Shown piece after piece: positions 36,477-52,798 of a DNA stretch of 64,000 nt. The DNA comes from a virus (taxonomy: Duplodnaviria > Caudoviricetes). Where the stretch lies: IMG/VR virus record IMGVR_UViG_3300037067_027616, positions 160,001-224,000 of that record; one strand, 5' to 3'. A model generated the notes under the pieces. It was not told the DNA's origin. It was given only the letters and a program-made list of their open reading frames with translations, and searched no databases. The position numbers and the translations under genes are program-made. The stretch's first letter is position 1; the number at the start of each line of letters is the position of its first letter.

Positions 36477-36478
36477 GG

Positions 36479-36583
36479 TACCTTCCTTTATGGTTTGGTT
36501 GACTTACAGACACTACCCAAAACAAAGGAAGGTCATGGAGGCTTTAAGACTCGTACCTATGTGAATCCAGACACCTATCTCAT
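36479..36583 (-). promoter_or_regulatory. Amber-containing leader (MR*VSGFT*VRVLKPP-UGA) with an anti-SD hairpin
   Basis: TAAGGAG-6 nt-ATG at 36583; in-frame TAG at 36575-77 and 36557-59; ACCTTCCTTT pairs with downstream AAAGGAAGGT. Confidence 0.7.
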
Positions 36584-37060
36584 GGGGTTCTCCTTATGAC
36601 AATCAGCTTCTCAATCGAAACGAGGTTAAGAAGTGTACAACGTGTGGAGGCTTCCTGTATATTTTTCTTGGCCGCTTCTGCTTTTGTAACGCTTTCTGCC
36701 GAACACGTTATCCGTATCCTGCCGTTCGATAACGACAACGTAATGGAATCGTATTCCGTTTCTTCAGGTATCTCCGTAAGGAGACACTTAAGAAGGGATA
36801 ATTCAAAGAGTTCCCGGGGTTCAAATGAACCAGCTACGTCCGGGAGGAGGTTATTAGCTGTCTTGTTGTACGATGCCAACTTCCGTATCCCCTTTAGAAA
36901 TTTCCTGCGGTGACAGAAGCCCGGCGATTTCCATGGAGTACATGGTGACATGCTTCTCGGCAACGTCCCTGGCTACAAGCCCCATCTTGCATGCCTCGAC
37001 CATTGTATTGGTGAGGTCGTTCATGACGGACAGCCTGTCGAGTACTTCATCGCTTAACAT

Positions 37061-37648: not shown

Positions 37649-38169
37649 AGTATGTCTCCAGACACGGTGAAACGGGCGCGCGACGTCAAAGACGTGGTGC
37701 CATATACAAATATACTTTCGTGTAGCTTTATTTTAACCTAATGCTGTTTTTGTGGGGCGGGTTCGTTCAACATCTGGAACGATGCTTCATTGAGGTAGGA
37801 CACTGTATCCATGAGGTTTCGGCATTCGAGCAGATCGTTGCCGTGTATGTTGGGGGTACTTTTGGTGGCAAGTTTGTATGATTTTAGTGTACGATTGGTC
37901 GGTTTTACCATACTGTTTTGTGCAGGCTCAGGGAAACTGACTGAAGGTTGTTCCGCGAACACAGGTACGTTACCAAGAGTCACCCCAAGGTCAAATTGCG
38001 ACAAACGCGACTGGGTTTTCGCTATGGAGACACAGGAAAACCACACGACAATAACCATGAGGGAGGTCAAAGCGAAATAATATTTTTTCATACGCCTTCA
38101 CCTTTCCACACGTGGAAGGAGTATGAGAACTTTATTAAAAATGCGAAGTGTTGCTTCGCATTTATATGA

Positions 38170-38246
38170 TGGTCGGGGCGACTGGATTCGAACCAGCGAC
38201 CACTTGGACCCCATCCAAGTGCCCTACCAGACTGGGCCACGCCCCG
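38170..38246 (-). tRNA. tRNA-Pro(GGG)
   Basis: CGGGGCG acceptor, loop AT-GGG-GT, CCA. Confidence 0.92.
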
Positions 38247-38261
38247 ACGATATCACGTCAT

Positions 38262-38666
38262 TCAACCCTTAACGAGTTCGAGCAAATGGGTACACGGCTT
38301 ATTTTCGGAGTGTTCCGATACGACGCACCCGCATACAGTGCATATGATAGTTTTCGGCTTCAAAGGGCAGGTTATGACACGGTCATATGCTTTTAACAAC
38401 TCTTTTACCAAGTTTGGCTTATGCATTACCAAATTCTCCTTCTCATTTTTTGAGAACTTCTTGATGACGCATTCTCTTTTCAAAGCCGCGCTGCGACTGC
38501 TACACTCCTCCACGTGTACAAGCCTTACTGGCAGTCCCAAGGCCTTCACCGATCGGGCACCTTTACCGGCGTTGTGGGTGGCGACCCTGCGTGGTACGTC
38601 ACAGGTCATTCCCGTGTAGAGAGCGCCTTTGGAGCATCGGACCATGTAGACGTACCAAGATTTCAT
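38262..38666 (-). CDS. GIY-YIG nuclease (YhbQ-like)
   Basis: WYVYMVRC..G.LYTG.T....R...HN.GKGA, RSAALKRE. Confidence 0.88.
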   Translation of the reverse strand: MKSWYVYMVRCSKGALYTGMTCDVPRRVATHNAGKGARSVKALGLPVRLVHVEECSSRSAALKRECVIKKFSKNEKENLVMHKPNLVKELLKAYDRVITCPLKPKTIICTVCGCVVSEHSENKPCTHLLELVKG

Positions 38667-38684
38667 AGAGCCTCATTTAAAAAA

Positions 38685-38786
38685 GATTTGGCGGCTTGCC
38701 CCGTCATGTAGTGGCTGCACCACGGCTGCCACCCTTGGGTGTCTAATCCGGCTTTTTGGTCGCCTCACCGGCAGGGCCGCCAAACC
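38685..38786 (-). ncRNA. Rod-shaped RNA, possibly divergent 4.5S/SRP-like
   Basis: 11-bp terminal stem; A-rich asymmetric loop; apical TAGAC-ACC-CAAG-GGT-GGCAGCC. Confidence 0.35.
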
Positions 38787-38808
38787 CTGTATGACTTTCC
38801 TTTCAAGA

Positions 38809-38884
38809 TGGCTGGGGCACGAGGGGTCGAACCTCGGACCTTCTGATTCAGAGCCAGACGCTCTACCAACTGAGCTATGCCCCA
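38809..38884 (-). tRNA. tRNA-Gln(CTG)
   Basis: TGGGGCA acceptor, loop CT-CTG-AA, CCA. Confidence 0.92.
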
Positions 38885-38892
38885 CTGTATTC

Positions 38893-38967
38893 TCGGGACA
38901 CTCGGATTCGAACCGAGAGTCTCGCGGACCCGAACCGCGCGCGTTAGCCAGGTTACGCTATGTCCCG
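38893..38967 (-). tRNA. tRNA-Pro(CGG)
   Basis: Loop TT-CGG-GT; no encoded CCA. Confidence 0.9.
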
Positions 38968-39050
38968 TTGTAATCATTGCAGAGGTACCATACCCGTTTC
39001 GGTTTTTCGACCCTTCAGGTACGGCGTGGTATGATACCTCTACATCTTAC

Positions 39051-39126
39051 TGGCTGGGGTGGCAGGACTCGAACCTGCGACACCGACCTTCAAAGGGTCG
39101 TGTTCTAGCCACTGAACTACACCCCA
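39051..39126 (-). tRNA. tRNA-Gln(TTG)
   Basis: Loop CT-TTG-AA, CCA. Confidence 0.92.
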
Positions 39127-39133
39127 TCATATT

Positions 39134-39212
39134 TGGTCGGGATGACTGGATTCGAACCAGCGACCCCTTGCTCCCAAGGCAAGTGCTCTAAACCAGACTG
39201 AGCTACATCCCG
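39134..39212 (-). tRNA. tRNA-Pro(TGG)
   Basis: Loop CT-TGG-GA, CCA. Confidence 0.93.
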
Positions 39213-39686
39213 ATATCAATTTTACTCATCGTGACTTCGTACGGTGACAGGTAGTACCTTCCGACCCTGTAATCCGCGTATCCTTCCTTCCTGTCGCCTT
39301 TGAAGCTCCTCGGGCCTGCAGGAGGGTTAGGAAGGTCTTCTACGGTCTTCCTCTGGTCGTACAGCATGAGTCGGCTTCCATCCCTCGCGTACCACTTGTC
39401 GTAGTACCCGATCCTGACACGCTCTCGCTCCCAGGCATCCCAAAGAACTTGCTCCTTCAAGAGTTCCAAATACGCCCCATGGTCACCGTACACGACCCTG
39501 AGGTATCCTTTCGCCACCAAAGTACCCCGCGTAGTGAAGAAGTGCATCGCCGGGGAACCTCCCTCGACCAGGTCAGTGTCCCTCTCCAACGCTTCCTTCT
39601 CCTCCATACGGTTCGGGTAGACGGCCGTTGTCCTGAACGGCTCACCTGTCGTGCATGTGTAGAAGGTGGTCACGTTTAGAATATAA

Positions 39687-39777
39687 TGGCTGGCACGGAG
39701 AGATTTGAACTCCCGATGGGCTTTCGCCACGGCGGATTAACAGTCCGCTGCCTTAGACCAAACTAGGCTACGTGCCA
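39687..39777 (-). tRNA. tRNA-Asn(GTT) with a long variable arm
   Basis: Loop CT-GTT-AA; GGC-GAAA-GCC extra arm; CCA. Confidence 0.87.
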
Positions 39778-39801
39778 TTGTGTCCTGTCAAAGAACAAAA
39801 G

Positions 39802-39838
39802 AAAAACCCCGGCGATCCTTTCGGTCCGCCGGGGTCTT
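39802..39838 (-). terminator. Attenuator terminator of tRNA block 3
   Basis: ACCCCGGCGGACC-GAAA-GGATCGCCGGGGT followed by TTTT. Confidence 0.88.
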
Positions 39839-39859
39839 GTGTTCTGGTCTTCAGTTAAT

Positions 39860-39940
39860 TCAGAGCGTGCGACCGAACCCCAACGGACTTTTGTTCCGCG
39901 GTTGCTGATTGGGGTTTGGGTTCTGAACGAACAAAAACAT
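39860..39940 (-). CDS. Leader peptide 3 (MFLFVQNPNPNQQPRNKSPLGFGRTL)
   Basis: AGGAG SD; CAG/CAA/AAC/CCA/CCC/CCG cluster; contains the antiterminator strand. Confidence 0.88.
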   Translation of the reverse strand: MFLFVQNPNPNQQPRNKSPLGFGRTL

Positions 39941-39962
39941 GGTTTATTCTCCTGTGGTGTTA

Positions 39963-39991
39963 AATATACACCTATCGGGACAAATTGTCAA
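39963..39991 (-). promoter_or_regulatory. Promoter of tRNA block 3
   Basis: TTGACA-17-TATATT. Confidence 0.88.
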
Positions 39992-40331
39992 CCTCTTTTT
40001 TCATTCTTTTGATCTTCCTTGCCAAAAATGCGCGCTCAAGTCCTTTTATGTCGCGGGTGATAGCGTACTCTACACGCTTCTGCCTGTACCCGGAAACTTT
40101 GAGAGTATCGACAGAAAGGAGTGTGACCCCATCCATATTAATGCGGTCAGTCAACCCCACATACACAGTGAATCGCGGAGCGCAGGAAACTAGAAGCAAC
40201 AACATCGCCATTGCGGCGACTATCTTGAAATTCATCGAAAGTCCTTTGTTTCAGGAATAATGACAAAAATGTGGTCTTATCGGGGATATGCTTGTTGCTA
40301 TGATATCCGTAAACGTGCAGCTACGACAATG

Positions 40332-40928
40332 TCATTCTATGATTTTCTTGGCTTCTGCGCGTCCCTCGTCAAGAAGCTTCTCATCTTTGAGGTCAAGCAC
40401 GGAAAGCAACTGTTGTAATTCTCCGGCATGTACCTTTTCCTCATCAGCGATATCACCCAAAAGTTCCTTTACATCGGCGTTCTCACAGCTGTCGATGATG
40501 AGTTCGTAAAGGTGCACCGCGTCCTGCTCTGCTGATATTGCAAGGCGTATAGCCCTGGCTGTTTCGCGTTGGTCGAGGGGCTTGTCCGTCTTGAGGAGGG
40601 ATCCTATGGATGAGAAGTCCATCGCCTGCTTCTCGGCGCCGGACTCCATCTTCTTCAGCCGCGTGTAATAGTCCTTAAACTCCCGAAGATGCGCTTGGGC
40701 GACCATTTCGTAAAACTGATCTTCGGTGACGGGCATCTTTACGCCAGCATCCTCGAAAGCTTTATTGAACAAATCGAAGATGTCTTTGTGTTCCTTCTCG
40801 ACCTCTTTGCCCATGGACAACTGTTTATTGCTGGGTTTGTCCGCCGCCATCTTTTCCAAATATGAACGCACCACATCCCGTGCTATTGCAGGGCTTTCCA
40901 TAATCACCGCCTTGTTTGTTACACACAA
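40332..40928 (-). CDS. DUF5661-like domain fused to a ferritin-like (rubrerythrin/Flp-type) domain
   Basis: MGKEVEKEH...AHLRE..DYYTRLKKME; AEQDAVHLYE...IADEEKVHAGE. Confidence 0.75.
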   Translation of the reverse strand: MCVTNKAVIMESPAIARDVVRSYLEKMAADKPSNKQLSMGKEVEKEHKDIFDLFNKAFEDAGVKMPVTEDQFYEMVAQAHLREFKDYYTRLKKMESGAEKQAMDFSSIGSLLKTDKPLDQRETARAIRLAISAEQDAVHLYELIIDSCENADVKELLGDIADEEKVHAGELQQLLSVLDLKDEKLLDEGRAEAKKIIE

Positions 40929-41218
40929 GGCGTTCTATATTAGAAGAGAATTAGTTAAATTCTTGGGGCGTTCCGAGCCGTTCCAAGATACCGATGGCGT
41001 GTTCCGGGTAAAGTTCCTTCAAACACTCGGGGCATATACTATGCGTAACTATTTTGCGCGGGGCTACGGCGAGGAGTTCTTTGCCTTCGCACCAATAGCC
41101 GTCATCGGTGCGTATCCGCCGACACGAACAACAGGAAGTTACGAGGAAGTTAAGCGGTTTAGTACCAGGTTGTGACATAGCGGGTAGTGGGTACATGAAT
41201 AGGAAATTACATCCGGTA

Positions 41219-41704
41219 CTACCCGTGCGCAAGATCGTCACGCACCTTCGTGAGGGTCTGCCCGAGCCAGTTGGTGCCTTTCCAATTCTTTGGGTCGTCA
41301 CACAGGGTCGACTTCCAATGGAGTCCGATGCCCCAGATGCAGTCTTGGGGGCTTGCCTCAACGATCGTGCGGGTGCCTGTCGACAGAAGTTCCTCCTTCA
41401 AATCCTTGTTCTGGCTGTACTTGGCCAAACACCCCTTGTACATGATGTCGAGAGCCTTGCCGTCCCATGTGTCCTTGTCGAATCCGCGTACGGCACGGCC
41501 GCATTGCTTTTGATAACCGGGATCATCGGAGGACATGATCTCGTTGAGCGTCTCTGTATCTCCGAACATGCGGGCCTTCTCGGCCATGAGATACTGCTCG
41601 GAGCAATTGTACTTGATGCCGTCGACCTCGAACCCGCAAGGGTGCCAATTGCTGAACGAGCACCCTTTTCCCCAGAAGAACACATACTTGTCGGTCATCC
41701 TCAT
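41219..41704 (-). CDS. NADAR (YbiA-like) family protein
   Basis: FSNWHP, SEQYLMAEKA.MFGD, GRAV.GF, EASP.D.IWGIG, G.NWLG. Confidence 0.92.
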   Translation of the reverse strand: MRMTDKYVFFWGKGCSFSNWHPCGFEVDGIKYNCSEQYLMAEKARMFGDTETLNEIMSSDDPGYQKQCGRAVRGFDKDTWDGKALDIMYKGCLAKYSQNKDLKEELLSTGTRTIVEASPQDCIWGIGLHWKSTLCDDPKNWKGTNWLGQTLTKVRDDLAHG

Positions 41705-41713
41705 AGGTTACTC

Positions 41714-42334
41714 CTATACGAGTCTGTTGAACATTGCTTGGTCATCGCCGCATTTCTCTTTAAGTTTGGCTAACCACGCGCGGGTCTTTACCTTGAACAT
41801 CTCTGGATTCTGCTGTTTGCCTTGGACCTTCATCTTGCAGACAACACCCTCGAAGGTGATGCCAAGCATACGAGAGGAACGGATCTCCTCCTCGACCTCG
41901 GCATTCATGTTACCACGAAATATAAACCTCGCCGTTCCAAGATGCCCGAACAGATCCAAGAACTCGTCAGGGTTGAGGATCCCGTGCTTGAAAGGTTTCA
42001 CATCGATAAGGGTGACATCGTGTGGCTCATCGAGCACGTGCCAACCAGCGAATGAGTGTTGACCCCAAAATTCAAAAAAAGCTGTAGCCTCGTGCCAACG
42101 GTTTTTTTCAAATACGTGACACATGCCTTCTTCATACTTCTCCTGTATAATCCCGATGGCATCCCCTAAAAACGGATGGCCCCCGTCCATGAGTTGGGTG
42201 CGGCTACCGTATTTGTAAAATTGGCCCTTCTTGCGGCGCCATTCGGCACGGATGTTGGATCCGTCCAATTTATCAAAGGCGTATACCGGGACTCCATAGT
42301 GTGGTATCCGCGGTATGGAAGGATATTCTTTCAT
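41714..42334 (-). CDS. RNA ligase-like nucleotidyltransferase
   Basis: YPSI, KLDGSN, FFEFWG, EGVV, FK.K; start taken at MKEYPSI. Confidence 0.7.
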   Translation of the reverse strand: MKEYPSIPRIPHYGVPVYAFDKLDGSNIRAEWRRKKGQFYKYGSRTQLMDGGHPFLGDAIGIIQEKYEEGMCHVFEKNRWHEATAFFEFWGQHSFAGWHVLDEPHDVTLIDVKPFKHGILNPDEFLDLFGHLGTARFIFRGNMNAEVEEEIRSSRMLGITFEGVVCKMKVQGKQQNPEMFKVKTRAWLAKLKEKCGDDQAMFNRLV

Positions 42335-42351
42335 AAAATTTCTATTTGAAG

Positions 42352-42426
42352 TGGTACGCCTGCCAGGACTTGAACCTGGGTAACTGGTTTCGTAGACCAG
42401 GGCCTGATCCGCTAGGCTACAGGCGC
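42352..42426 (-). tRNA. tRNA-Arg(ACG)
   Basis: Loop CT-ACG-AA, CCA. Confidence 0.92.
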
Positions 42427-43062
42427 ACAAGTTTTGTCCCACTCGGCTCTCAAAAAATCGTACAAACCTTTTATCTTTTGTAGGGCTTTTGTGTCTGTGA
42501 TAACCATCTTGAATGTTCCATAGTTACTTCTTCTAGGACTTACGTTACCCCCTTTTTCATAAGAATGAATATCGTCAACTTTTATTTTCATTTGGTCCGC
42601 CCAATATTTTTTCATTTCTTCAGTAACACTGTGACCAATTAAAACGTATCTTGGGTTTTTTACAGAAAATAATGTAATGTATTTGGCAAAAAGTTTCATT
42701 ATTGATGGGTCAGTGTTTGTAAAGTCTATGGTGTTTTTAGATTTTTTGTAACCTTCTGCTAAATACATTACAATAAAATCCCTAACTCCTTTGTTTGAAA
42801 GTATCTCTTCAGCATTGTCATAGCCTTCTCTGTAACAGCCATCTCTGATTTTCCTATACTTTTCAACTAATACCACGACTGCTACTTTCCTAGCACGCTC
42901 AAGAGACTCGCTCCTTGTTATCCTATTGAAACCGAAACCACGAAGCCAATAAAACACTGTAGATTTTCTTCGCCCTAAAATAGATGCTATCTCGTCAATT
43001 GTTTTACCGCTTCTCTTCAGTTCTACAGCTTTTTCTTTCTCCTGCTTGCTGCCTCTTCTCAT
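42412..43062 (-). CDS. HTH plus LAGLIDADG-like putative homing endonuclease
   Basis: N-terminal HTH (G.TI.EIA..LG..KSTV..W); MYLAEG.K...F.N.D motif; visibly AT-richer than its flanks; stop lies inside tRNA-Arg. Confidence 0.6.
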   Translation of the reverse strand: MRRGSKQEKEKAVELKRSGKTIDEIASILGRRKSTVFYWLRGFGFNRITRSESLERARKVAVVVLVEKYRKIRDGCYREGYDNAEEILSNKGVRDFIVMYLAEGYKKSKNTIDFTNTDPSIMKLFAKYITLFSVKNPRYVLIGHSVTEEMKKYWADQMKIKVDDIHSYEKGGNVSPRRSNYGTFKMVITDTKALQKIKGLYDFLRAEWDKTCAPVA

Positions 43063-43134
43063 TTGAACCTCCTATCGGATGGTGTAGGCCACACGAATGA
43101 AAGTTCAAATAGAAGATTATTACAAATTGTCACA

Positions 43135-43172
43135 TCGTAGCCTGGTATTCTATCCAGTTGAGCTACGGACGC
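43135..43172 (-). pseudogene. 5' half of a tRNA-Arg(ACG), truncated just after the anticodon
   Basis: GCGTCCGTAGCTCAACTGGATAGAATACCAGGCTACGA followed by unrelated AT-rich sequence. Confidence 0.8.
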
Positions 43173-43179
43173 ATGTTTC

Positions 43180-43449
43180 CTACAATTTCTGTCTTCCCTC
43201 CACCAACTTGTCATCGATGATGATGTACCCTTGTTGTGAAAACGGCTTGTGTATGATGCCCCTGAATCGTAACCCTTGCGATTTGAGGGCACATATCCAT
43301 TCGGTGTTTTCCGGCCGACACGTAAACAGCCACACTTCATTTCCTTCAGAGATGATGGTGTTGACCTTTTCCACCACCCCCGGGAACAACTCGTCAGAGC
43401 CACTAGGTACGATCGTGTTGTCCACGTCCAACAGGTAGCACAACCCCAT
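43180..43449 (-). CDS. Small HAD-like protein
   Basis: LLDVDNTI, FTCR, KP....IIDD. Confidence 0.65.
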   Translation of the reverse strand: MGLCYLLDVDNTIVPSGSDELFPGVVEKVNTIISEGNEVWLFTCRPENTEWICALKSQGLRFRGIIHKPFSQQGYIIIDDKLVEGRQKL

Positions 43450-43714
43450 TCTAGCCCCTATTCTATATCTTCAAAGGTTCAACGGTAACGAACTTCTTTC
43501 CTATGTGGCTCATGGTTTTTTCCTCATACCCACATTTCTTGCATTTGACTTTCCCAGACCACGGTCCCCACGCGAGCGCCGAAATGACTACGATTTGGTC
43601 GTTACCACATTTGGTGCATGTGTCACCGTTCGGGGCTGGTCGTTCCACAGGAAGCATGGGCTTCAAGACGATTTCTTTGACGGCTTCTAACGTTTTCCTA
43701 TTCACAAATGCCTC

Positions 43715-44302
43715 CTACCCTACGAAAAAGTAGTCCACTGTCTTATCCCCGTACACCGACTCCGCCGCCTTCTCCTTTGAATCGTAAGAAGCCAGGCGGT
43801 ACATGTTTGACATTACTCTCCATTGGTCATCTTCATATACGAGAAGTATTGCGTGTCCTCGCCTTTTACCGTCCTTGCGTCCGTGGCACACAGCCATGAC
43901 ACATTTTTTATTTCCCCGCAGGACTTCCCACGACAAGAGTGCAAAATCCTCACAATCTCCACCCCATTTTGCTGCCGTAAGCCAAGGCTTGCTGTAGCAA
44001 TTAATTTTGTCTTTCCGCCACACAAAACCATATTCTGAATACCAAGCCTTCAACGTGATCGTATCATTTACTTTCTTGCGGGCCTCTTTTATCAAGTGCA
44101 TGCCCCACTGTTTCCGTTTGGCATTGAGCAGGCCCTCGATACCTCCCGACAGAAAGATGTAGGGTTTTGCCGTCAACGGACCGTACCACTTGATAAACCA
44201 TCTCCACAACCTCACGACTTGACCTCTCCTGTTTCGATCGGTATAATAAAAAGATCCGGCATGGTATCTACCTTTTCGTACTGCTGATGACGAGCAAGCC
44301 AC
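43715..44302 (-). CDS. Transglutaminase-like cysteine protease domain protein (true start probably downstream)
   Basis: GDCEDFA...GHAIL. Confidence 0.6.
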   Translation of the reverse strand: MACSSSAVRKGRYHAGSFYYTDRNRRGQVVRLWRWFIKWYGPLTAKPYIFLSGGIEGLLNAKRKQWGMHLIKEARKKVNDTITLKAWYSEYGFVWRKDKINCYSKPWLTAAKWGGDCEDFALLSWEVLRGNKKCVMAVCHGRKDGKRRGHAILLVYEDDQWRVMSNMYRLASYDSKEKAAESVYGDKTVDYFFVG

Positions 44303-44541
44303 TTTACCACCACGTGAACCTCATGCTCCCCGAGTTCTGCCTGCCAATAGGAGTTGTCACCGTCTGTAAGCCTTTGTGACCCGTTTCTCTCCGCTATCTC
44401 CTTGAGGAACCCCAACATGTCCATCATCCAGGAGTGCCTTGAAGAATTCGTGTCTGCGATGTTTGGTACCCGGATGAGGTTCCCTTCAAACCAATACCTC
44501 AATGTTTCCTTTTTTCTTGCCACTGTGCACCCCTTTTCTTT

Positions 44542-44619
44542 TGGTACCCGCGGTGCGACTTGAACGCACGATCTTTGCCTTCGGAGGGCAATGTTTTGAT
44601 CCAACTAAACTACGCGGGC
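44542..44619 (-). tRNA. tRNA-Arg(CCG)
   Basis: Loop CT-CCG-AA, CCA. Confidence 0.92.
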
Positions 44620-44810
44620 ATTGTTCGCTCATCCCGTATTTTCTTTTCAACCAACCCCTTTTTCCCATTTCAGCACACAATCCTTGGAACATTTTTCGGT
44701 CGTCTCCGGAAAGACCAAACTCGCGGCCTTTAGTAAACAGTCCCCGGAAGTCATCAAACAAATATTCATCAGACATCTTCGACAAGTCTTCCACAATGTC
44801 CTTCAATCTA

Positions 44811-44887
44811 TGGTGGGCCCGGCCCGGCTTGAACGGGCGACCTCCTGCATGTCGAGCAGGCACTCTAGCCAACTGAGCTACGAGCCC
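44811..44887 (-). tRNA. tRNA-Val(GAC)
   Basis: Loop TC-GAC-AT (C33), CCA. Confidence 0.9.
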
Positions 44888-44893
44888 ACGTAT

Positions 44894-44970
44894 TGGTACC
44901 CCCTCCCGGAGTCGAACCGGGTACCTACTGATTAAGAGTCAGTTGCTCTAGCCAAATGAGCTAAGGAGGC
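44894..44970 (-). tRNA. tRNA-Lys(CTT)
   Basis: Loop CT-CTT-AA, CCA. Confidence 0.93.
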
Positions 44971-45379
44971 ATGAATTATCCGTTGAACTCCTCTTCGTTC
45001 TCTTTTTCTTTGGTTTCGTCCACACTATCCACGAGTACCTTCTCGATGCTGTCACAAAATTTACGTATGCTCGATACCAACAATTCCCTTTGCGCCTTGT
45101 TGACCTTTTTCATGAATTCACCGAAAATGGCGTTGAACTCCTCATCTGCAAACATTTTCTTTTCCATCTCGGAAGCAATAGTTCCGAGAGCATTGATTTG
45201 CAACTCACGCCATTTCCAAACCATGTCGCGCATAAACTTTTTAGGATCTTCTGTCAGCACGGCCATCGTCTTCAGCACAGACATCGCCACGAAGAACGTG
45301 AAGTCGTTTCTGAGTTCCCTCAATGCCTCTCCACTCACGTTCTCCTCGGTACCCATTCATCGTACCTTTCGTTTTGATT

Positions 45380-45457
45380 TGGTAGGCGCGAGAGGACTTG
45401 AACCTCCGACCCTCGGTTTGTAGGACCGATGCTCTGTACCAACTGAGCTACGCGCCT
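45380..45457 (-). tRNA. tRNA-Val(TAC)
   Basis: Loop CC-TAC-AA (C33), CCA. Confidence 0.9.
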
Positions 45458-45834
45458 TCAATATCTTCTCCTTCTTGAGTTTTCCGCCGGCCATTTCAGA
45501 CCAATACTCTACATCGAGGTCGGGTTTCTCCGCCTTGATGTCTTCAGCTATCTTGCGTCCCATCTCGTACAGTTTCTTCTCGTACTTCTTGAGGACACAG
45601 TAATTGGGTCTTCCCGTCGCCACGTCATCGTAGTAGCGCTCAAATTTATTCAAATCATTTGTGATGCTCTTTGACAACCCAATATCTTCTGGGTCGATCA
45701 TAAAACCCTTGTCCAGGCTCCACAAGCACGAAGAACTGAAGTCAGGCATGACCTTCACTCCCGGGACTTTGTACCGTTTTGACTTTGATTCCTTTGACAT
45801 ATGTTCAAGCCTTTTATTAACAGGTTAGACTTTC

Positions 45835-45909
45835 TGGTACCCCCGGTTGGATTCGAACCAACGACCCCCATCTTAAAAGGATGGTATTCTACCTCTGAAT
45901 TACGGAGGC
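45835..45909 (-). tRNA. tRNA-Lys(TTT)
   Basis: Loop CT-TTT-AA, CCA. Confidence 0.93.
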
Positions 45910-45910
45910 A

Positions 45911-45953
45911 CAAAACAAGAAGGCCCCCGGTGACTTTGTCATCCGGGGGCCTT
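45911..45953 (-). terminator. Attenuator terminator of tRNA block 4
   Basis: AAGGCCCCCGG-ATGAC-aaa-GTCA-CCGGGGGCCTT followed by CTTGTTTT. Confidence 0.85.
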
Positions 45954-45980
45954 AAACCTATTGTGAAGAGATTGAATAGG

Positions 45981-46046
45981 CTACACGACCCCCGATGGCG
46001 TCACCCGGCGCTTGGATACGACTCGTTTTGCCTTCAGTGAGAACAT
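45981..46046 (-). CDS. Leader peptide 4 (MFSLKAKRVVSKRRVTPSGVV)
   Basis: AAG/AAA/GTC/GTA/CGG/CGC/CGA cluster; contains the antiterminator strand. Confidence 0.85.
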   Translation of the reverse strand: MFSLKAKRVVSKRRVTPSGVV

Positions 46047-46071
46047 GGTGCCTTTTTCCCTTCAAAAACAT

Positions 46072-46100
46072 AATATACCACAACCTGACAGGTTTGTCAA
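46072..46100 (-). promoter_or_regulatory. Promoter of tRNA block 4
   Basis: TTGACA-17-TATATT with extended TG. Confidence 0.88.
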
Positions 46101-46103
46101 TGG

Positions 46104-46667
46104 TCAATTCGTGAAATTTACAGGTTGCTTACCGGATCTTTTCAAACAAGCATCGTATAACTTTGCTGCCTGGAGTTCGTTAGCAAAAGTTCCTACTCTC
46201 TTATTGCGATATCTCACCACCCAAGGTTTGTTGATACTTCCGCTATAACTCACTCCGATGTATTTCGATATTGGAGTACCGACGTTTGAATATTGTTCGG
46301 CACGCACTTTAGTGCCCGGACTCCTTGAGAGATCTATGCCGTTCTGTGATCTGTTCCTTATCTTTTTGAAAACCTGAACAGGCTGCTGTGGCATACAGAG
46401 CGGTCTGGCAACAATGTTTTTTCCTACCCTTGCAGGATCGGCCGTCAGCTGGTCACTGACTTCTTCGAGGGGAGAATCTATGAGGGTTATATCGTGTGAG
46501 GTGTCCCCGAAGTACTTTGAGGTACATTCATCGATAGCTTTTTCCAAATAATCAATACTCCCCGCGAATTGGGCCAACTTGAATACTTCATTTACAAGCT
46601 CAAGGATCCTTTGGTTAATCGCAGGTTTCATCAATTCGAGGACGTCATCTGTAACGGTCTTTGTCAT
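46104..46667 (-). CDS. Protein with a C-terminal AP2-like DNA-binding domain
   Basis: SKYIGVS...W.......VGTF..E..AAK.YD. Confidence 0.65.
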   Translation of the reverse strand: MTKTVTDDVLELMKPAINQRILELVNEVFKLAQFAGSIDYLEKAIDECTSKYFGDTSHDITLIDSPLEEVSDQLTADPARVGKNIVARPLCMPQQPVQVFKKIRNRSQNGIDLSRSPGTKVRAEQYSNVGTPISKYIGVSYSGSINKPWVVRYRNKRVGTFANELQAAKLYDACLKRSGKQPVNFTN

Positions 46668-46708
46668 ATTGCTCTCCTTTTATTGTTTTTGATTTCAGAA
46701 ACGGTTTT

Positions 46709-47464
46709 CTATTCCTTTTTATCTTCAGGTATTAAGTCTTCCTTAATAAGCGCCCGGTGCCTGACCTGGCTGTCCAAATGCCACTTTCCTTCCCTGTTCG
46801 ACATGCGTAAAACTTCACAGTTGTAGGGGTTTCTGACGGTTTCATAGTATTCGACAGACCAATGAAACCAGCGCATGAGGAAAAGTCTCATCGTGAGTCC
46901 GTGCGTGACGATGAGGCAAACCCTGGGAAAATCCGGCTTATCGAAATCTCTCCAGAGTGTGTCCATGAAGGTGGACAAGCGGTCATAGACATCAGCCCCT
47001 GATTCTCCATCGGGGATCCTGTAGAAGAACGTGCCAAACTTGTCACGTTCTTCCTCGATCTTTTTTGAAACATCGGCGTCCTTGTAGTTTCCCCAATCCT
47101 GCTCGCGCAACCGCGGGTCGAACGTTTCGCTTGCGATGTGGACATAGTATGGTTTATGGAGTAAATCTTTTATTCTTCCTGTGTGCGTGTGAATACCATC
47201 GAACAAAAGCCTCCAGACGGTATGCCACGTTTGTTTGGTCCGCTCATATGGCGAGCAATATGCGGCGATTTCCGGCGGGTCGATGCCTTTGGGGAATTCG
47301 TGAACGAGATCGTCTTTGATGTAAATGCCTGCGGTAACAGCCTGCTGACGACCGAAATCGGTGAGAGGTATCTTCCAATCAGGGACGGTCTTCAAAAGAT
47401 CCCAATTCACGTTCGCTTCAGACTGACCGTGCCTTATGAGATATATGAATTTTGGAGGAGCCAT
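46709..47464 (-). CDS. Histidine phosphatase (phosphoglycerate mutase family)
   Basis: LIRHGQS, SPY.RT.QT, LREQDWG, GES..DV..R, VTHG. Confidence 0.9.
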   Translation of the reverse strand: MAPPKFIYLIRHGQSEANVNWDLLKTVPDWKIPLTDFGRQQAVTAGIYIKDDLVHEFPKGIDPPEIAAYCSPYERTKQTWHTVWRLLFDGIHTHTGRIKDLLHKPYYVHIASETFDPRLREQDWGNYKDADVSKKIEEERDKFGTFFYRIPDGESGADVYDRLSTFMDTLWRDFDKPDFPRVCLIVTHGLTMRLFLMRWFHWSVEYYETVRNPYNCEVLRMSNREGKWHLDSQVRHRALIKEDLIPEDKKE

Positions 47465-47482
47465 AGTGCCTCTTTTTTTATT

Positions 47483-47557
47483 TGGTATCCTCACCGGGAA
47501 TCGGACCCGGATCTAGAGTTTAGGAAACTCTTGTTCTGTCCGTTGAACTATGAGGAC
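47483..47557 (-). tRNA. tRNA-Arg(CCT)
   Basis: Loop TT-CCT-AA; atypical T loop TCCGATT; CCA. Confidence 0.88.
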
Positions 47558-47615
47558 ATAGTTGAATATACCATTTCGTAACCCTGATTTACAGCACTTT
47601 TCGAAGACATAAATG

Positions 47616-47691
47616 TGGTGCGGCAGCCGAGACTCGAACTCGGGGCATTCAGCTTGGGAAGCTGACATTCTACCAACTGAATTACTGCCGC
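47616..47691 (-). tRNA. tRNA-Gly(CCC)
   Basis: Loop TT-CCC-AA, CCA. Confidence 0.92.
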
Positions 47692-47696
47692 ATATT

Positions 47697-47771
47697 TGGA
47701 GCGCCAGCCGAGGCTCGAACTCGGGACCCCTACCATGGCAAGGTAGTATTCTACCACTGAACTACTGGCGC
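47697..47771 (-). tRNA. tRNA-Gly(GCC)
   Basis: Loop TT-GCC-AT, U73, CCA. Confidence 0.92.
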
Positions 47772-48189
47772 TTTCTGTTTTCATCAATGATTTTGTGCTC
47801 CCGCTCCCACCCGTCCACATATGTCTGTAACTGTTTTTCCACCCAATCGTGAACTTTCTGGGAAAAATCCACTCCATATTCTTTTTTAGCCTCTTCAAAT
47901 CCGACCCGCCACGCTTCCTTCTCAATGTCCGGTGTGTAGTATTCAACAGAAGATGCAAAGTCATCTGGCATGAGAGCGTGACCCAACTCATGGAAAAATG
48001 ACGCCACCTTCAACTCATCATCCTCATAAATCCCTAAATAAATTTTGGGGTGGCAGATGTAACTTTTGTTTTCGTATTCTTCAAGACCATTGGCACTGCA
48101 GTAATCGTCTCCAGGTACGACTTGAACAACCTCATATCCGTATTTGGCGGCTACTTTTTTGAAATCGGATAGTGCCCACGAAATTAAAA

Positions 48190-48265
48190 TGGAGCGGGAG
48201 ACGAGGCTCGAACTCGCGACCTTCAGATTGGAAATCTGAGACTCTACCAACTGAGTTACTCCCGC
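48190..48265 (-). tRNA. tRNA-Gly(TCC)
   Basis: Loop TT-TCC-AA, U73, CCA. Confidence 0.93.
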
Positions 48266-48278
48266 GTATTTTCATATC

Positions 48279-48356
48279 TGGTACGCCTGGCGAGACTCGA
48301 ACTCGCGACCCTCAGATTAGAAGTCTGATGCTCTGATCCAGCTGAGCTACAGGCGC
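48279..48356 (-). tRNA. tRNA-Arg(TCT)
   Basis: Loop CT-TCT-AA, CCA. Confidence 0.93.
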
Positions 48357-48361
48357 TCATG

Positions 48362-48868
48362 TTATCTCAACCCATACAAGTACAAAAGTGCCGCATACCC
48401 CGAGGGAAGTAACTGAAGAGGTTTGTCGACCTCCTTCGAGTACTTCACGGCCATCTCTAAAAAATACCGCGCGTGGAGCATCGCCTCTATCCATCTTCGC
48501 GGGTCTTTTTTAGGATCCAAGCCATCCTCCATAATTTCTTTGAACACGGAACATCGATTTTTCCAACCGTACTTGTATAGGCCTTCCAACTCCTTCAGCA
48601 CCTTGCGTGTCACAACCACCGCGGATCCAACTTTATAGGAACCGTGGTACAGCCTGTAAACTGTGTCCTCAATTTCCCAATGGCTGTTGATGTTTTCGAG
48701 AAGTTCCTCAAGTACCTTTTGTTTTTTATGGAGGTTCTTGATGAGAACGCGTTGCCCTTGGTCGTTGCTGCGCTTCTCCTTCATGGCAGCCGCGCTACTG
48801 TTGCGCAGACCTTTCTCACAGAATTTTTTGAAATCCTCGATGCTAATCTTTTTTGCTTTGTCATTCAT
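48362..48868 (-). CDS. Hypothetical protein
   Basis: YR.YH.S.KV...EA.LHARYFLEMAVKY...LPSG.AALLYLY.LR. Confidence 0.6.
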   Translation of the reverse strand: MNDKAKKISIEDFKKFCEKGLRNSSAAAMKEKRSNDQGQRVLIKNLHKKQKVLEELLENINSHWEIEDTVYRLYHGSYKVGSAVVVTRKVLKELEGLYKYGWKNRCSVFKEIMEDGLDPKKDPRRWIEAMLHARYFLEMAVKYSKEVDKPLQLLPSGYAALLYLYGLR

Positions 48869-49153
48869 GGAATTTTTGTTTCTCCGTGAGATTCGGAATC
48901 CATGTGCGGATCCTCGCAGAGTACAACGAATTCTCCAGTACCTTCGAGAGCCTCAAGTTCCAAATCATCGAAGTCATTCTCTTGGAAGTTCGTCCCGTCC
49001 CACCAACGGCACATGTACGTTATCCCGTGTTTTGTCACCAGTACTCCGCACACTCTGCCGTCCTGTTTTCCATCGACGATGTGTACCCTTTGGCCCGGGC
49101 TGAACTTTGATTTTACAACCATGTGGCTCCCCTGTGGTGTGTGGTGTATGGTG

Positions 49154-49227
49154 TGGGCCCACCAAGAGTCGAACTTGGGACAGGCGGATTATGAGACCGC
49201 TACTCTAACCAACTGAGTTATGGGCCC
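49154..49227 (-). tRNA. tRNA-Ile2(CAT), lysidine-type
   Basis: GGGCCCA acceptor, loop CT-CAT-AA; leader 5 carries three ATA codons; no encoded CCA. Confidence 0.8.
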
Positions 49228-49248
49228 GTTGATTCCTGCTCATACACC

Positions 49249-49277
49249 AATATACCATTCAGCGGGACACGTGTAAA
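49249..49277 (-). promoter_or_regulatory. Possible internal promoter in tRNA block 5
   Basis: TTTACA-17-TATATT with extended TG. Confidence 0.55.
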
Positions 49278-49303
49278 CTTGATACATTTGTGAAACAGGT
49301 ATG

Positions 49304-49377
49304 TAGCCCGGACGAGATTCGAACTCGTGATTTTCACAGTGAAAGTGTGATGGATTAGACCGCTACCCTACCGGGCC
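49304..49377 (-). tRNA. tRNA-Glu(TTC)
   Basis: Loop CT-TTC-AC; no encoded CCA. Confidence 0.9.
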
Positions 49378-49382
49378 ATACT

Positions 49383-50063
49383 TTATGCCAAATCACTTAT
49401 AAAGCCTTGATTATACCGCTTATATGATGTTCGTCTTCCGTTGGAGTGGTTCACGACCATGTCATCTCGCACCCGTATAGTACGGACCTTGTCACCCCGC
49501 ATACCACTTCCGACCTGCCCTCGCCTGGCATCATTCACGTTTCCGGTCACTTTTGACGTGAGCCTGTGGTGGATCCTCTGGCGCAACACGCTCATCGCTT
49601 GTTCCTTATTTTGGTGCTGGCTACGCTCCGATTCGCATCTCACAATAATGCCCGTCGGGATGTGCTTCACCTGTACGGCAGAATCCGTCACGTTTCGGTG
49701 TTGTCCGCCTTTTCCGGAACCGCGCGCTATTGAGATCTCTATGTCACTACACGGTATGTCCACCTTTACCCCGGGGATCTCTTCGAGGACGGCCACTGTG
49801 ATGGTGGAAGTCTGTACACGGCCGCGCTTCTCTGTCGGAGGTATCCTTTGCCACCTGTGACCGCCCGGCTCGTTCTCAAACGTTCTTGCGGCGTCTTCTC
49901 CCGATATTTTGATGCAGACGTAACCTGGTCGCATCTCCAGGACACGCATCTAATATCCCTTCAAAACGCACACCTTTCCATAAATCCTGAACTGATCTTC
50001 AACTAAAAGCTTTGCATCGTCTCCGCCTTCGGCGGCTCTGATTTCCACTATGATTGATTGCAT
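49383..50063 (-). CDS. Short RF1-like peptide chain release factor with in-frame TAG at codon 38
   Basis: GGAGG SD, MQSIIVEIRAAEGGDDAK...KGY*MRVLE..., E.G.HR.QRIPPTE..GRVQTS, GGQ, SQ..NK. Confidence 0.85.
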
Positions 50064-50199
50064 GGTACCCTCCGTTATAAAACGCCCTGGTGTTCCCTAC
50101 GTCCGTCCTGATAGCCCGGGCATCGGGGCATAGGAACGGTAACCTTTCGGTGAGACTTGTTCGCCGAAAGAAAACTCGGTTGCACCTTTTGGCTTATAT

Positions 50200-50277
50200 T
50201 GGTAGCCCGGATGAGGTTCGAACTCATGAGTCTCCGCCTTGAGAGGGCGGTGTCCTAGCCAATTAGACGACCGGGCC
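50200..50277 (-). tRNA. tRNA-Glu(CTC)
   Basis: Loop CT-CTC-AA, CCA. Confidence 0.93.
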
Positions 50278-50324
50278 TTACATTCAAAAGTGCTTTTGTC
50301 GTCAGCAGACTGTCAAAGATCAAC

Positions 50325-50359
50325 GAAAAAACCCCGCCAGGCTTGGCCTGACGGGGTTT
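50325..50359 (-). terminator. Attenuator terminator of tRNA block 5
   Basis: AAACCCCGTCAGGC-caa-GCCTGGCGGGG followed by TTTTTT. Confidence 0.88.
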
Positions 50360-50381
50360 GTGTATAAGTACAATACTCCCG

Positions 50382-50441
50382 TCAGGTGGGTATTCTTCCC
50401 TCCCTACCTTCTTCAGCTATTCTGACGGTTGCGTTTATCAT
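50382..50441 (-). CDS. Leader peptide 5 (MINATVRIAEEGREGRIPT), near-leaderless
   Basis: ATG about 10 nt from the -10 box; ATA/AGA/AGG/GAA/GAG/GGA/GGT cluster; antiterminator overlaps the TGA. Confidence 0.85.
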   Translation of the reverse strand: MINATVRIAEEGREGRIPT

Positions 50442-50450
50442 AGGATATTA

Positions 50451-50479
50451 AATATAACACAAAAAAACGGTGTTGTCAA
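50451..50479 (-). promoter_or_regulatory. Promoter of tRNA block 5
   Basis: TTGACA-17-TATATT with extended TG. Confidence 0.88.
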
Positions 50480-50949
50480 CCCTGTTCTTTTTTAGCGAGT
50501 CTCATGTGTTCTATCGAACTGGTCATGGTGTCTTTACCGCCCATCTCCGTTAGAAGGTACAAAAGAAGATTTTTCAAACGGAATTCGACATCCTCTTTCA
50601 TCTCGCGGACACCTTTTTTATACTTCTCCACAGACATCTTCAACTTTGGTACTTTGGCGGCCACGCTGTCGAGTATCCTCTCGAATTGGTCGAGAGCATT
50701 TTTAATGCTGTCTATTGGAACTTGGGCCTTGTCCCTATGTTCCATAATGACATCGTCTAAAGAAGGGGTATTCAAATCCCGGGGACTTGGGATAACATTG
50801 TACGGATGCTTTGCAGGATACACGGTGTTTGGAGAGTAAGCAGATTCGATGGTGTTAGATATCACATCGACATCCTCTGCCTCCTTGATCATTCCTAAAA
50901 ACTCGAGTCGTTCAGCAATGTCATCAAATGTCGCGATTACTTCTTTCAT
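50476..50949 (-). CDS. Repeat-motif protein
   Basis: FDDIAERLEFLGMIKEAEDVDVISNTIE. Confidence 0.7.
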   Translation of the reverse strand: MKEVIATFDDIAERLEFLGMIKEAEDVDVISNTIESAYSPNTVYPAKHPYNVIPSPRDLNTPSLDDVIMEHRDKAQVPIDSIKNALDQFERILDSVAAKVPKLKMSVEKYKKGVREMKEDVEFRLKNLLLYLLTEMGGKDTMTSSIEHMRLAKKEQG

Positions 50950-50956
50950 ACACCCC

Positions 50957-51862
50957 TCATTTTAGATACGTGTAATCTACCTGCTTGGACAGTTGTTCGC
51001 CTATCTCGATGTATTGGCTCATGTATTTGACCCCGTCCATGATGTCCATTTTAGGGTCAAGGTCGTATTTTTCAAGTCTTTGAAAGGTAAAATCTTGATA
51101 TTGCCCGGCTATTCCGGACAATATTTCTTCGTTAGTTCTGTCACATTGTCTACGTGCAAGTCCACCGTCCATGGGACTCATGAAATAGTAGAGTTGCCGG
51201 AGAGCATTGTAACTAGATGCCTCTTTATAGGACATGGAGAACGGGGACTCCCCGCATCCGAGGGACAACATGTGTACCTGTTCGTTTTTGAGCCAATCCA
51301 AGCGGCAGGCCTCTACGTAGGCCTCTACGGTCGGGCTGCTCATGTTACCGGTTCCTCCGTCAAGCCACACAGCGTTTCCTGCTTTGTCTTTGATGGATCC
51401 AAAATAATAAGGCGCGGCGTAGCTCCTGGACAAGGCTTCAAGTACAGTAAGTTCACCGTCTTTTTCTTCCCAAGACTTGAAGAAGTGTGTCCTTCCGTCC
51501 ACCATATTCACGCTGGTGCAGACAAAACGTGTTTCGCAATTCTTCATCCTGAACTCTCCGCCGACGTGATAACGTATGAGTTCGTCTAACGGCGTGCGGC
51601 TGTATTTATTTCCGATGAACGGTATGTGCGTTTGTGGAGTGAACACTTTAGGTATGGCCGACAGCAACAACGGGTAGAACGTTTCCATTCGGAGGGCGCC
51701 TGTGGATAGCACTCCGCCGATTATTGCACCCACGGAAGATCCCCAAACAAGGTCGAAAACCTCGTGTATTTCCTTGCCGAGGACGCGAACGATGTTGGAG
51801 AGTATCGTGGCAGCAATGGGACCCTTGGCGCCGCCGCCGTCTATTACCAAAATGCGCTTCAT
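50957..51862 (-). CDS. Patatin-like phospholipase
   Basis: DGGGAKG, GSSVG, AAPYYF, DGG. Confidence 0.9.
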   Translation of the reverse strand: MKRILVIDGGGAKGPIAATILSNIVRVLGKEIHEVFDLVWGSSVGAIIGGVLSTGALRMETFYPLLLSAIPKVFTPQTHIPFIGNKYSRTPLDELIRYHVGGEFRMKNCETRFVCTSVNMVDGRTHFFKSWEEKDGELTVLEALSRSYAAPYYFGSIKDKAGNAVWLDGGTGNMSSPTVEAYVEACRLDWLKNEQVHMLSLGCGESPFSMSYKEASSYNALRQLYYFMSPMDGGLARRQCDRTNEEILSGIAGQYQDFTFQRLEKYDLDPKMDIMDGVKYMSQYIEIGEQLSKQVDYTYLK

Positions 51863-51898
51863 ACCGAGTTAACGGTATGAAGAGAGCATTATGGTTTG

Positions 51899-52798
51899 TT
51901 AGGACGGGTCAAGACCGTTGATGTCGCTTCTTTCGATCGACAACGGGTTTTTTCTTTTGTATCCAGAAGTCTCGTGCCTTTTAACGACCTTATGATCTTC
52001 ATAGGATGCACGGAGTTTCAAAAATTCATTGTAAGACTCCGGTCTTCCATCGAACTTCAAAAAATCGTCCCAGGCGAACATGTCTTCGTCTTTGCAGAGC
52101 CATATTTTGAGGATGCGGTCGACTTCATCATAGGATTGTGCCCCGAACTGCTCCAAATCGGAGGATGTGATTCCGAGCCCGTCTGTAGGAACAGCGTGGA
52201 CACACTGCTCAAGTGCGGTTGCGGCATCCTCGGCGTGTTCGGTGCGTAGTGATTGCACGAGATACTTCGAAAGATCGTAAACCTCCGTCTTCCACAGATA
52301 TTGTATCATGCCATAGTCGCCGACGTCACCATGAAGCGTCCAGAACCCCAACTCATATTCGGAAAGATTGTCGGTAGACAGAACCAATCCTTTGTGTTTG
52401 CTTGCAAGGTCAAACAGTCTTATCATGCGGAGGCGCGCTTTCAAATTTCCCCGGCGAACTTTTCGCTCATGTGTGAGGTCACCAGGTTCATCGTCTTCCA
52501 TGAGTATTTTTACCATCGATGCAAAGTCGTTGCCAAAGTCGGCTTCTTTGAAGCTTGTGCAAAAGGCCTTTCCTACGGCCGCCGCGCGTTGTATTTCTTC
52601 ACTTTTATTCGTGGCTATGGTGATGCTTCTGCCGATGAGTTCCATACCATGATAGTCGCATACAGGTTTGGCCAATGCTGCGCACAAGGCACTGTCCAAT
52701 CCCCCGGACACACCGAGAACCAAAGAATTCAAATGGTTGGATGAAACATATTCCGACAGCGATTTCCGTAGACTCTCAACAACTTTAAGATGATCCAT
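51899..52798 (-). CDS. nadE: NH3-dependent NAD+ synthetase
   Basis: LGVSGGLDSA, GNLKARLRM, TDN.SE..LGF.TL.GD, KTEV, PTDGL. Confidence 0.92.
   Translation of the reverse strand: MDHLKVVESLRKSLSEYVSSNHLNSLVLGVSGGLDSALCAALAKPVCDYHGMELIGRSITIATNKSEEIQRAAAVGKAFCTSFKEADFGNDFASMVKILMEDDEPGDLTHERKVRRGNLKARLRMIRLFDLASKHKGLVLSTDNLSEYELGFWTLHGDVGDYGMIQYLWKTEVYDLSKYLVQSLRTEHAEDAATALEQCVHAVPTDGLGITSSDLEQFGAQSYDEVDRILKIWLCKDEDMFAWDDFLKFDGRPESYNEFLKLRASYEDHKVVKRHETSGYKRKNPLSIERSDINGLDPS

Follow-up and report, generated by a model that had tools for sequence, protein, structure and literature searches.

A putative leader-peptide attenuator at the head of a phage tRNA block, with control codons that match the tRNAs downstream

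Layout of unit 4 and its tRNA block

The DNA analysed here is a 64,000-nt stretch (the window) of a 466,729-bp IMG/VR virus record that is about 98% complete and has a GC content of 49%. Using ARAGORN and the Rfam tRNA model, we found 47 tRNA genes in the window, 47/47 on the minus strand, which jointly cover all 61 sense codons. The genome has five tRNA blocks, and an attenuator-like unit stands at the head of each (5/5). We describe the unit ahead of the fourth block (unit 4) and then the four others; coordinates are those of the window unless stated otherwise.

Unit 4 occupies positions 46100-45910 of the minus strand. Its elements follow one another in the order sigma-70-type promoter, SD, 21-codon ORF and GC-rich, U-tailed terminator, with tRNA-Lys(UUU) directly afterwards. 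The individual features are:

46072 to 46100, minus strand: promoter, with the -35 box TTGACA at 46100-46095, a 17-nt spacer and a TG-extended -10 box TATATT at 46077-46072
46047 to 46065, minus strand: 5' UTR of about 19 nt, with an SD-like AGGGA at 46061-46057 recognised by its anti-SD pairing
45981 to 46046, minus strand: leader ORF of 21 codons plus a TAG stop, picked by rule
46002 to 46034, minus strand: control codons 5-15, with three Lys (AAG, AAA, AAG), three Arg (CGA, CGC, CGG) and three Val (GTC, GTA, GTG)
46030 to 46047, minus strand: region 1 (anti-antiterminator), which pairs with region 2 in the MFE fold of the truncated transcript without a ribosome
45986 to 45998, minus strand: region 2 (5' arm of the antiterminator), within the last codons of the leader, in a predicted duplex with 45952-45939 (dG -20.2)
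45920 to 45953, minus strand: terminator hairpin of 34 nt, with region 3 at 45953-45938, the loop AAA and region 4 at 45934-45920
45910 to 45919, minus strand: T-rich tail following the hairpin and stopping 1 nt short of tRNA-Lys(UUU)

The promoter matches the sigma-70 consensus at 11 of 12 positions and is among the best in the region; use of the host sigma-70 is assumed from this consensus. Sequences of the same type (at most one mismatch) occur in 46 copies genome-wide, making this the standard promoter of the phage. Transcription of unit 4 would start near 46065-46062. The preliminary description had been concerned that a weak SD might not support translation of the leader. We calculated an anti-SD pairing of -5.3 kcal/mol, ending 9 nt ahead of the ATG; among 282 long ORFs of the phage the median is -5.7 kcal/mol, and among random 20-mers it is -2.8. 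The SD is therefore average for this phage, and the concern falls away.

The leader was chosen by a fixed rule, as the frame of at least 15 codons opened by the first ATG lying at least 8 nt past the -10 box. A frame starting from an ATG that abuts the -10 box (46071) was considered and rejected: its match to the block is at background (7/36) and its start should precede the transcription start. Four nucleotides ahead of the -35 box of unit 4 is the end of an AP2/HNH-endonuclease-like ORF (46104-46667 (-)), which by analogy with the tRNA genes of T5 is possibly a homing endonuclease inserted between tRNA blocks.

Block 4 has six tRNA genes, in the order Lys(UUU), Val(UAC), Lys(CUU), Val(GAC), Arg(CCG) and Arg(ACG), with about ten ORFs interspersed. 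Its tRNA genes and two of its protein-coding genes are:

45835 to 45909, minus strand: tRNA-Lys(UUU), the first gene past the terminator of unit 4 (ARAGORN; Rfam tRNA, 65.9 bits)
45380 to 45457, minus strand: tRNA-Val(UAC) (ARAGORN, Rfam tRNA)
44894 to 44970, minus strand: tRNA-Lys(CUU) (ARAGORN, Rfam tRNA)
44811 to 44887, minus strand: tRNA-Val(GAC) (ARAGORN, Rfam tRNA)
44542 to 44619, minus strand: tRNA-Arg(CCG) (ARAGORN, Rfam tRNA)
42352 to 42426, minus strand: tRNA-Arg(ACG) (ARAGORN, Rfam tRNA)
41714 to 42340, minus strand: RNA-ligase-like ORF of 208 aa, late in the block (phrog_548 'RNA ligase', E=6.7e-12, profile positions 3-243 of 341)
41219 to 41704, minus strand: NADAR-domain protein (PF08719, E=3.8e-51)

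The position of tRNA-Lys(UUU) as the first gene after the terminator (45835-45909) is as originally described. The block had also been said to end with an RNA ligase and a NADAR protein. The NADAR assignment is secure (Pfam, E=4e-51), whilst the ligase assignment holds in part, the match being to part of the profile (PHROG 548, E=7e-12); the ORF gave neither a Pfam match nor a PDB sequence match.

There is no further strong minus-strand terminator between unit 4 and the next unit at 39.8 kb, so block 4 is probably a single transcription unit that ends at the terminator of the next attenuator. The operon gated by unit 4 would then probably span about 5.9 kb, with the six tRNA genes and some ten ORFs, including those for the RNA-ligase-like and NADAR proteins. 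Across 35000-52000 (-), the only strong minus-strand terminators are those of the attenuators, bar one at 51884. It is thus probable that each attenuator terminator closes off transcription of the block before it as well, and that any read-through would meet the next leader.

Other genes of tRNA metabolism were noted elsewhere. Just outside the tRNA region is a tRNA-maintenance toolkit (2634-4094 (+), 4606-6396 (-) and 9430-10470 (-)) with a polynucleotide-kinase-like ATPase, a CCA-adding tRNA nucleotidyltransferase (E=5e-52) and a full-length RNA ligase (phrog_24030, E=5e-105). Two more tRNA-like genes (called as Asn-AUU and Leu-UAA) lie outside the window at 411456-411917 (+) of the record, far from the main array and just downstream of a standard phage promoter.

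Codon content of the leaders

Reading the leader directly, nine of the 11 codons from 5 to 15 (46034-46002) specify Lys, Arg or Val, as the preliminary description had it. Its statement on the Arg codons is equally borne out: all three in leader 4 are CGN, and AGR codons are confined to the leader that heads the adjacent upstream block, the one with the Arg(UCU) and Arg(CCU) tRNAs.

We then scored every internal codon of the leader for whether it can be decoded by the six tRNAs of block 4. Eleven of the 20 can, compared with 17.9% of codons in the long ORFs of the window (binomial P=2e-4), and the match to each other small block is 1/20. The effect is specific to the frame. In the two shifted frames of leader 4, only 2/19 and 3/19 codons match the block as against 11/20 in frame; with all five units pooled, the in-frame own-block match of 56% drops to 20% and 19% when the frame is shifted and to 18-29% for the antisense strand. 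In block 4, five of the six tRNAs have an exact Watson-Crick codon in leader 4, and the sixth, Arg(ACG), is served by CGA and CGC via inosine wobble.

The four sister units have the same arrangement and each matches a different set of tRNAs:

50318 to 50479, minus strand: sister unit 5, with promoter, 19-codon leader and terminator, which would gate two Glu tRNAs, a CAU tRNA, Arg(UCU), three Gly tRNAs and Arg(CCU); antiterminator z -4.0
39790 to 39991, minus strand: sister unit 3, with a 26-codon leader rich in Gln, Asn and Pro, which would gate Asn, three Pro and two Gln tRNAs; codon match P=4e-5, antiterminator z -4.1
28512 to 28712, minus strand: sister unit 2, with a 23-codon leader rich in Ile, Ser(AGC), Phe, Asp and Met, which would gate Phe, Asp, two Met, Ile(GAU) and Ser(GCU) tRNAs; 16/22, P=4e-8, antiterminator z -5.3
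23620 to 23864, minus strand: sister unit 1, with a 40-codon leader that has an exact codon for every one of the tRNAs (20/20) in its 20-tRNA block; antiterminator P=0.024

From unit 5 to unit 1, the own-block matches are 8/18, 11/20, 11/25, 16/22 and 24/39, with P values ranging from 9e-3 to 4e-8. Overall, 42 of 46 tRNAs have an exact Watson-Crick codon in their own leader, whereas the null means are 17.2 and 19.5 and the maximum in 20,000 trials was 31.

Unit 5 has some peculiarities. Its leader lacks an SD and its ATG is only 9 nt after the -10 box (50441-50451 (-)), so it would need nearly leaderless translation, unlike the other four leaders. The CAU tRNA of block 5 (49153-49227 (-)) has an anticodon loop resembling that of T5 tRNA-Ile2, and the leader (50441-50382 (-)) has three ATA codons; if the CAU tRNA is indeed Ile2, the own-block match would rise from 8/18 to 11/18. 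As for the two CAU tRNAs of block 2, one is initiator-like (1:72 mismatch) and the other elongator-Met-like.

Leader folding and the distribution of the units

An antiterminator had been named for unit 4 in the preliminary description. The pairing does exist (45998-45986 with 45952-45939), but its dG of -20.2 is not significantly better than the -15.9 +/- 2.8 obtained with dinucleotide shuffles of this G-rich segment (P=0.08). Judged alone, the antiterminator of unit 4 is the weakest element of the case. In the sister units the equivalent duplexes exceed the shuffles at P<=0.001 for units 5, 3 and 2 (z -4.0 to -5.3) and at P=0.024 for unit 1. The terminator of unit 4 has a dG of -27.8 kcal/mol.

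To model the switch, we folded the transcript truncated before the 3' arm of the terminator, with a ribosome footprint placed at every codon in turn. For unit 4, region 2 is predicted to pair with 11 of the 16 nt of the terminator 5' arm as long as the A site is at codons 2-14 (or 2-13 if the footprint is made longer). Beyond this range, up to the stop, this antiterminator pairing is blocked. Without a ribosome, region 1 sequesters region 2 and the terminator arm is left free, so that termination is predicted. The switch falls where the Lys/Arg/Val run ends. Codon 14 (CGG, the sole codon for Arg-CCG) is at the edge of the effective window of the unit; codon 15 (GTG) and two Val codons at 20-21 are outside it.

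The constrained folds of units 1, 2, 3 and 5 follow the same ribosome-position logic. Their behaviour without a ribosome is not uniform, unit 2 being predicted to antiterminate in that state. Equilibrium folds of the full leaders kept the terminator in every case and are uninformative for a kinetic switch; antitermination would thus depend on co-transcriptional kinetics.

The TAG stop of leader 4 introduces a possible variation. A read-through frame would reach a TGA at 45943-45941, in the 5' arm/loop of the terminator, and a ribosome there would sit on the terminator and probably abolish termination. The phage encodes an amber suppressor tRNA (CUA anticodon; 35861-35937 (-)). In a crude and weak test for stop recoding, treating TAG as sense lengthened frames no more than treating TAA as sense, and so gave no sign of TAG recoding.

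The combination of elements is confined to the tRNA blocks. Amongst the 88 strong terminators in the 467 kb, that of unit 4 included, a promoter lies 60-330 nt upstream at six loci only: the five tRNA-block heads and one ordinary 66-codon gene. A promoter followed by a strong terminator within about 150 nt occurs at the tRNA-block heads only. The sixth locus (109,760-109,453 of the genome) was examined as an attenuator candidate and rejected, the gene being an ordinary HTH gene.

We looked for comparable units in other phages. The histidine-phosphatase gene adjoining unit 4 led to three large AT-rich phage contigs with 42-46% protein identity, in which the tRNA arrays are elsewhere in the genome and differently grouped. 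A promoter-consensus scan of these relatives gave nothing useful. A terminator-first scan identified six units in two of them (G001 and G002), with strong GC-rich terminators 21-82 nt before block-head tRNAs, each preceded by an SD and a short ORF. G001 combines Arg(ACG) and Arg(CCG) with Pro and Gln tRNAs in one block, and the leader of that block has the core R-R-P-Q-P-Q-Q-P-R-R. Elsewhere in the relatives, leaders correspond to Phe/Asn/Ser(GCU)/Cys and Met/Thr/Ala/Ile/Val blocks. When the tRNAs were shuffled among blocks, the observed score of 37/52 for G001 compared with an expectation of 24.4 (0 of 20,000 shuffles), and that of 14/18 for G002 with 10.4 (P=0.016). The antiterminator arms, which start from 19 nt upstream to 1 nt downstream of the leader stop, are better than shuffles in 6/6 units (P<=0.003, z -3.6 to -6.1). 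This covariation of leader and block at deep divergence is the strongest evidence for a functional codon match.

A peptide stretch, S-W-L-L-E-G ... G-Y-D-K-T, recurs in the long leaders of the G001 His block and the G002 Lys block, although these blocks start with different tRNAs; the leaders are thus homologous and have evolved together with the block content. Four of the six leaders in the relatives end in TAG. G001 has tRNAs with UUA (ochre suppressor) and CUA anticodons and, according to ARAGORN, one with the four-base anticodon CTTG; the positions noted here are local 16386-16460 and 32395-32468, in a joined stretch starting at 142500.

The design is not found everywhere. For some tRNA groups of the relatives, no unit could be recognised within 300 nt, and the tRNA region of T5, used as a negative control, has no such units; the design is thus not a universal one, nor does the method generate it as an artefact. 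We sought close relatives of unit 4 in viral contigs with three proteins encoded in or next to the arrays (the 147-aa orphan, PcfJ-like and patatin-like proteins), in metagenome contigs with the 147-aa orphan, and by an exact tRNA-Lys core pattern, in each case with no close relative found. A pattern from the leader common to G001 and G002 recovered those two phages and chance matches in GC-rich contigs lacking tRNAs. Isolate phages searched by blastn showed similarity at the tRNA level only.

Proposed mechanism and biological meaning

Taken together, the frame-specific codons, the ribosome-scan folds, the four sister units, their exclusivity and the six units in relatives support the original proposal of a leader-peptide attenuator matched to its own tRNAs. 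We consider it likely, on these sequence and folding models, that unit 4 is a ribosome-mediated (leader-peptide) transcription attenuator that senses decoding capacity. The phage would probably make the block 4 tRNAs only when Lys, Val and CGN-Arg codons are decoded slowly.

In this model, the host RNA polymerase would start at the strong promoter and a ribosome would load on the 21-codon leader. Rapid decoding of the Lys, Val and CGN-Arg codons would bring the ribosome to the last codons, where it would cover region 2; the terminator would fold, and transcription would halt about 145 nt in, just short of tRNA-Lys(UUU). Where the matching charged tRNAs are scarce, the ribosome would stall at codons 5-14 and leave region 2 free to pair with the emerging 5' arm of the terminator, and the polymerase would read into the tRNA genes. 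Without translation, region 1 would sequester region 2 and the terminator would form. The unit would thereby act as a supply-on-demand device in which the new tRNAs relieve the stall; since the tRNA products decode the leader's own codons, the loop would be self-limiting. The analysis shows the sequence elements, the frame-specific codon match with its replication and covariation, and predicted alternative helices that depend on where the ribosome stands; that ribosomes translate the leader, that the choice is made kinetically in vivo, and that the signal is a shortage of tRNA rather than of amino acid is what we infer here. The sensor would respond to any shortage in Lys, Val or CGN-Arg decoding.

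The same hardware could instead have evolved to report amino-acid starvation through uncharged tRNA, which is its use in biosynthetic operons. Unit 4 is built like the classical attenuators, which respond to charged-tRNA levels (PMC1183508), and to a stalled ribosome an uncharged tRNA is no different from a missing one. However, the genes regulated here are tRNAs, and extra tRNA relieves a tRNA shortage, not amino-acid starvation. Moreover, the leaders list isoacceptor codons, with CGN and AGR Arg codons in separate units and 20/20 in unit 1, which would be pointless for sensing an amino acid. We therefore regard starvation as an unlikely signal.

A unit that senses general translation status or the timing of infection, through ribosomes engaging phage transcripts, with codon content being secondary, is quite improbable. 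It would be in keeping with the termination predicted for unit 4 without a ribosome (region 1 with region 2), which makes initiation matter, but unit 2 is predicted to do the opposite. It also leaves unexplained both the enrichment of own-block codons, in frame only, in eleven leaders and the covariation of leader and block between phages.

Alternatively, the short ORF may have arisen by chance, with the hairpin serving simply as a somewhat leaky terminator or insulator that separates transcription units, and with no sensing of codons. The antiterminator of unit 4 alone (P=0.08) and the general type of the promoter would be compatible with this. Such a reading is very doubtful given the codon match of unit 4 (P=2e-4) and its replication in ten other units, the frame control, the 42/46 exact codons against a null of about 18, and the restriction to tRNA-block heads of promoters with a strong terminator within about 150 nt. 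Scarcely credible is ribosome-free sensing in the manner of a T-box riboswitch, with tRNAs pairing to the leader RNA: regulated genes and sensed molecules would both be tRNAs, as in T-box logic, but nothing in the window meets the threshold for a T-box or another Rfam leader family, the codon-matching triplets keep strictly to one frame, which belongs to an ORF that has an SD and runs from ATG to stop, and one leader would have to bind 6 to 20 different tRNAs.

The preferred reading, attenuation by a translated leader, has close parallels. Attenuators with control codons for more than one amino acid are familiar from enterobacteria, as in the ilvGMEDA leader (Ile/Leu/Val codons) and the thr leader (Thr/Ile); trpL, hisL, leuL and pheL are further amino-acid leaders. 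Unit 4 resembles them in its promoter-proximal short ORF, in control codons for several amino acids and, going by its predicted folds, in regions 1-4 with mutually exclusive helices, in the occlusion of region 2 by a ribosome at the end of the leader, and in termination without a ribosome. Unlike them, the phage units would regulate tRNAs and not biosynthetic enzymes, their control codons are an inventory of isoacceptor codons rather than a run of one codon, and their products decode the leader, which gives direct negative feedback; the units are phage-encoded and have no sequence or Rfam relationship to the enterobacterial leaders. T-boxes (RF00230) similarly couple the status of specific tRNAs to read-through via a choice of terminator or antiterminator, but bind the uncharged tRNA directly without a ribosome, whereas in the phage units an in-frame translated ORF would do the reading. 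T-box targets are mostly aminoacyl-tRNA synthetase and amino-acid genes.

An Rfam cmscan of the whole window at the gathering score gave tRNA matches only, with no Trp, His, Leu or Thr leader and no T-box (RF00230). Leader-peptide attenuation as a general mechanism is covered in PMC1183508, and pheL in PMC3082878; our full-text search of the literature found no description of leader-peptide attenuation of tRNA genes. Attenuation of phage tRNA genes would, then, be a variant of the known leader-peptide mechanism with a new target class, tRNA genes.

What would trigger unit 4 during infection? Both PrrC and PARIS AriB cut tRNA-Lys, to which the response of phages is a ligase or a resistant tRNA (PMC10264068, PMC11464382). 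The known counters to tRNA-targeting defences include T4 polynucleotide kinase and RNA ligase against PrrC, T5 tRNA-Lys against PARIS AriB, and tRNA-Tyr against retron effectors (PMC10264068, PMC11464382, PMC11555353). The present phage is comparable in that tRNA-Lys(UUU) is the first gated gene, block 4 has an RNA-ligase-like gene, and an RNA ligase, a PNK-like protein and a CCA-adding enzyme are nearby. By analogy, PrrC-type cleavage of tRNA-Lys is a plausible trigger of unit 4, a scenario that fits both the known cleavage of tRNA-Lys and these genes. The counter-defence studies differ in treating the rescuing tRNAs or enzymes and not a transcriptional control that senses demand; PMC10264068 makes no mention of a promoter.

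Why phages have tRNA genes has been under discussion for over 50 years (PMC10264068), the candidate answers being codon compensation, a substitute for host tRNAs lost to decay, and escape from defences that cleave tRNAs. A regulator induced by slow decoding of its own codons would show that the phage's own trigger is shortage, and the question becomes testable with a 190-bp element and a reporter. It would also extend textbook leader-peptide attenuation to tRNA genes, with the leader as an inventory at isoacceptor resolution and with direct negative feedback, and could provide ready-made sensors of decoding capacity for chosen codons.

More tentatively, and by analogy with the known defences, the five units may form an inducible counter-defence regulon. 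A PrrC- or PARIS-AriB-type nuclease, or phage-induced decay of host tRNAs, would stall the matching leader and switch on only that block, supplying replacement tRNAs together with co-transcribed repair or anti-defence proteins (RNA-ligase-like and NADAR in block 4). We offer this as a possibility rather than an expectation. If true, it would amount to direct evidence, from the genome, that surviving tRNA depletion rather than adjusting codon usage is the main reason why large phages have tRNAs.
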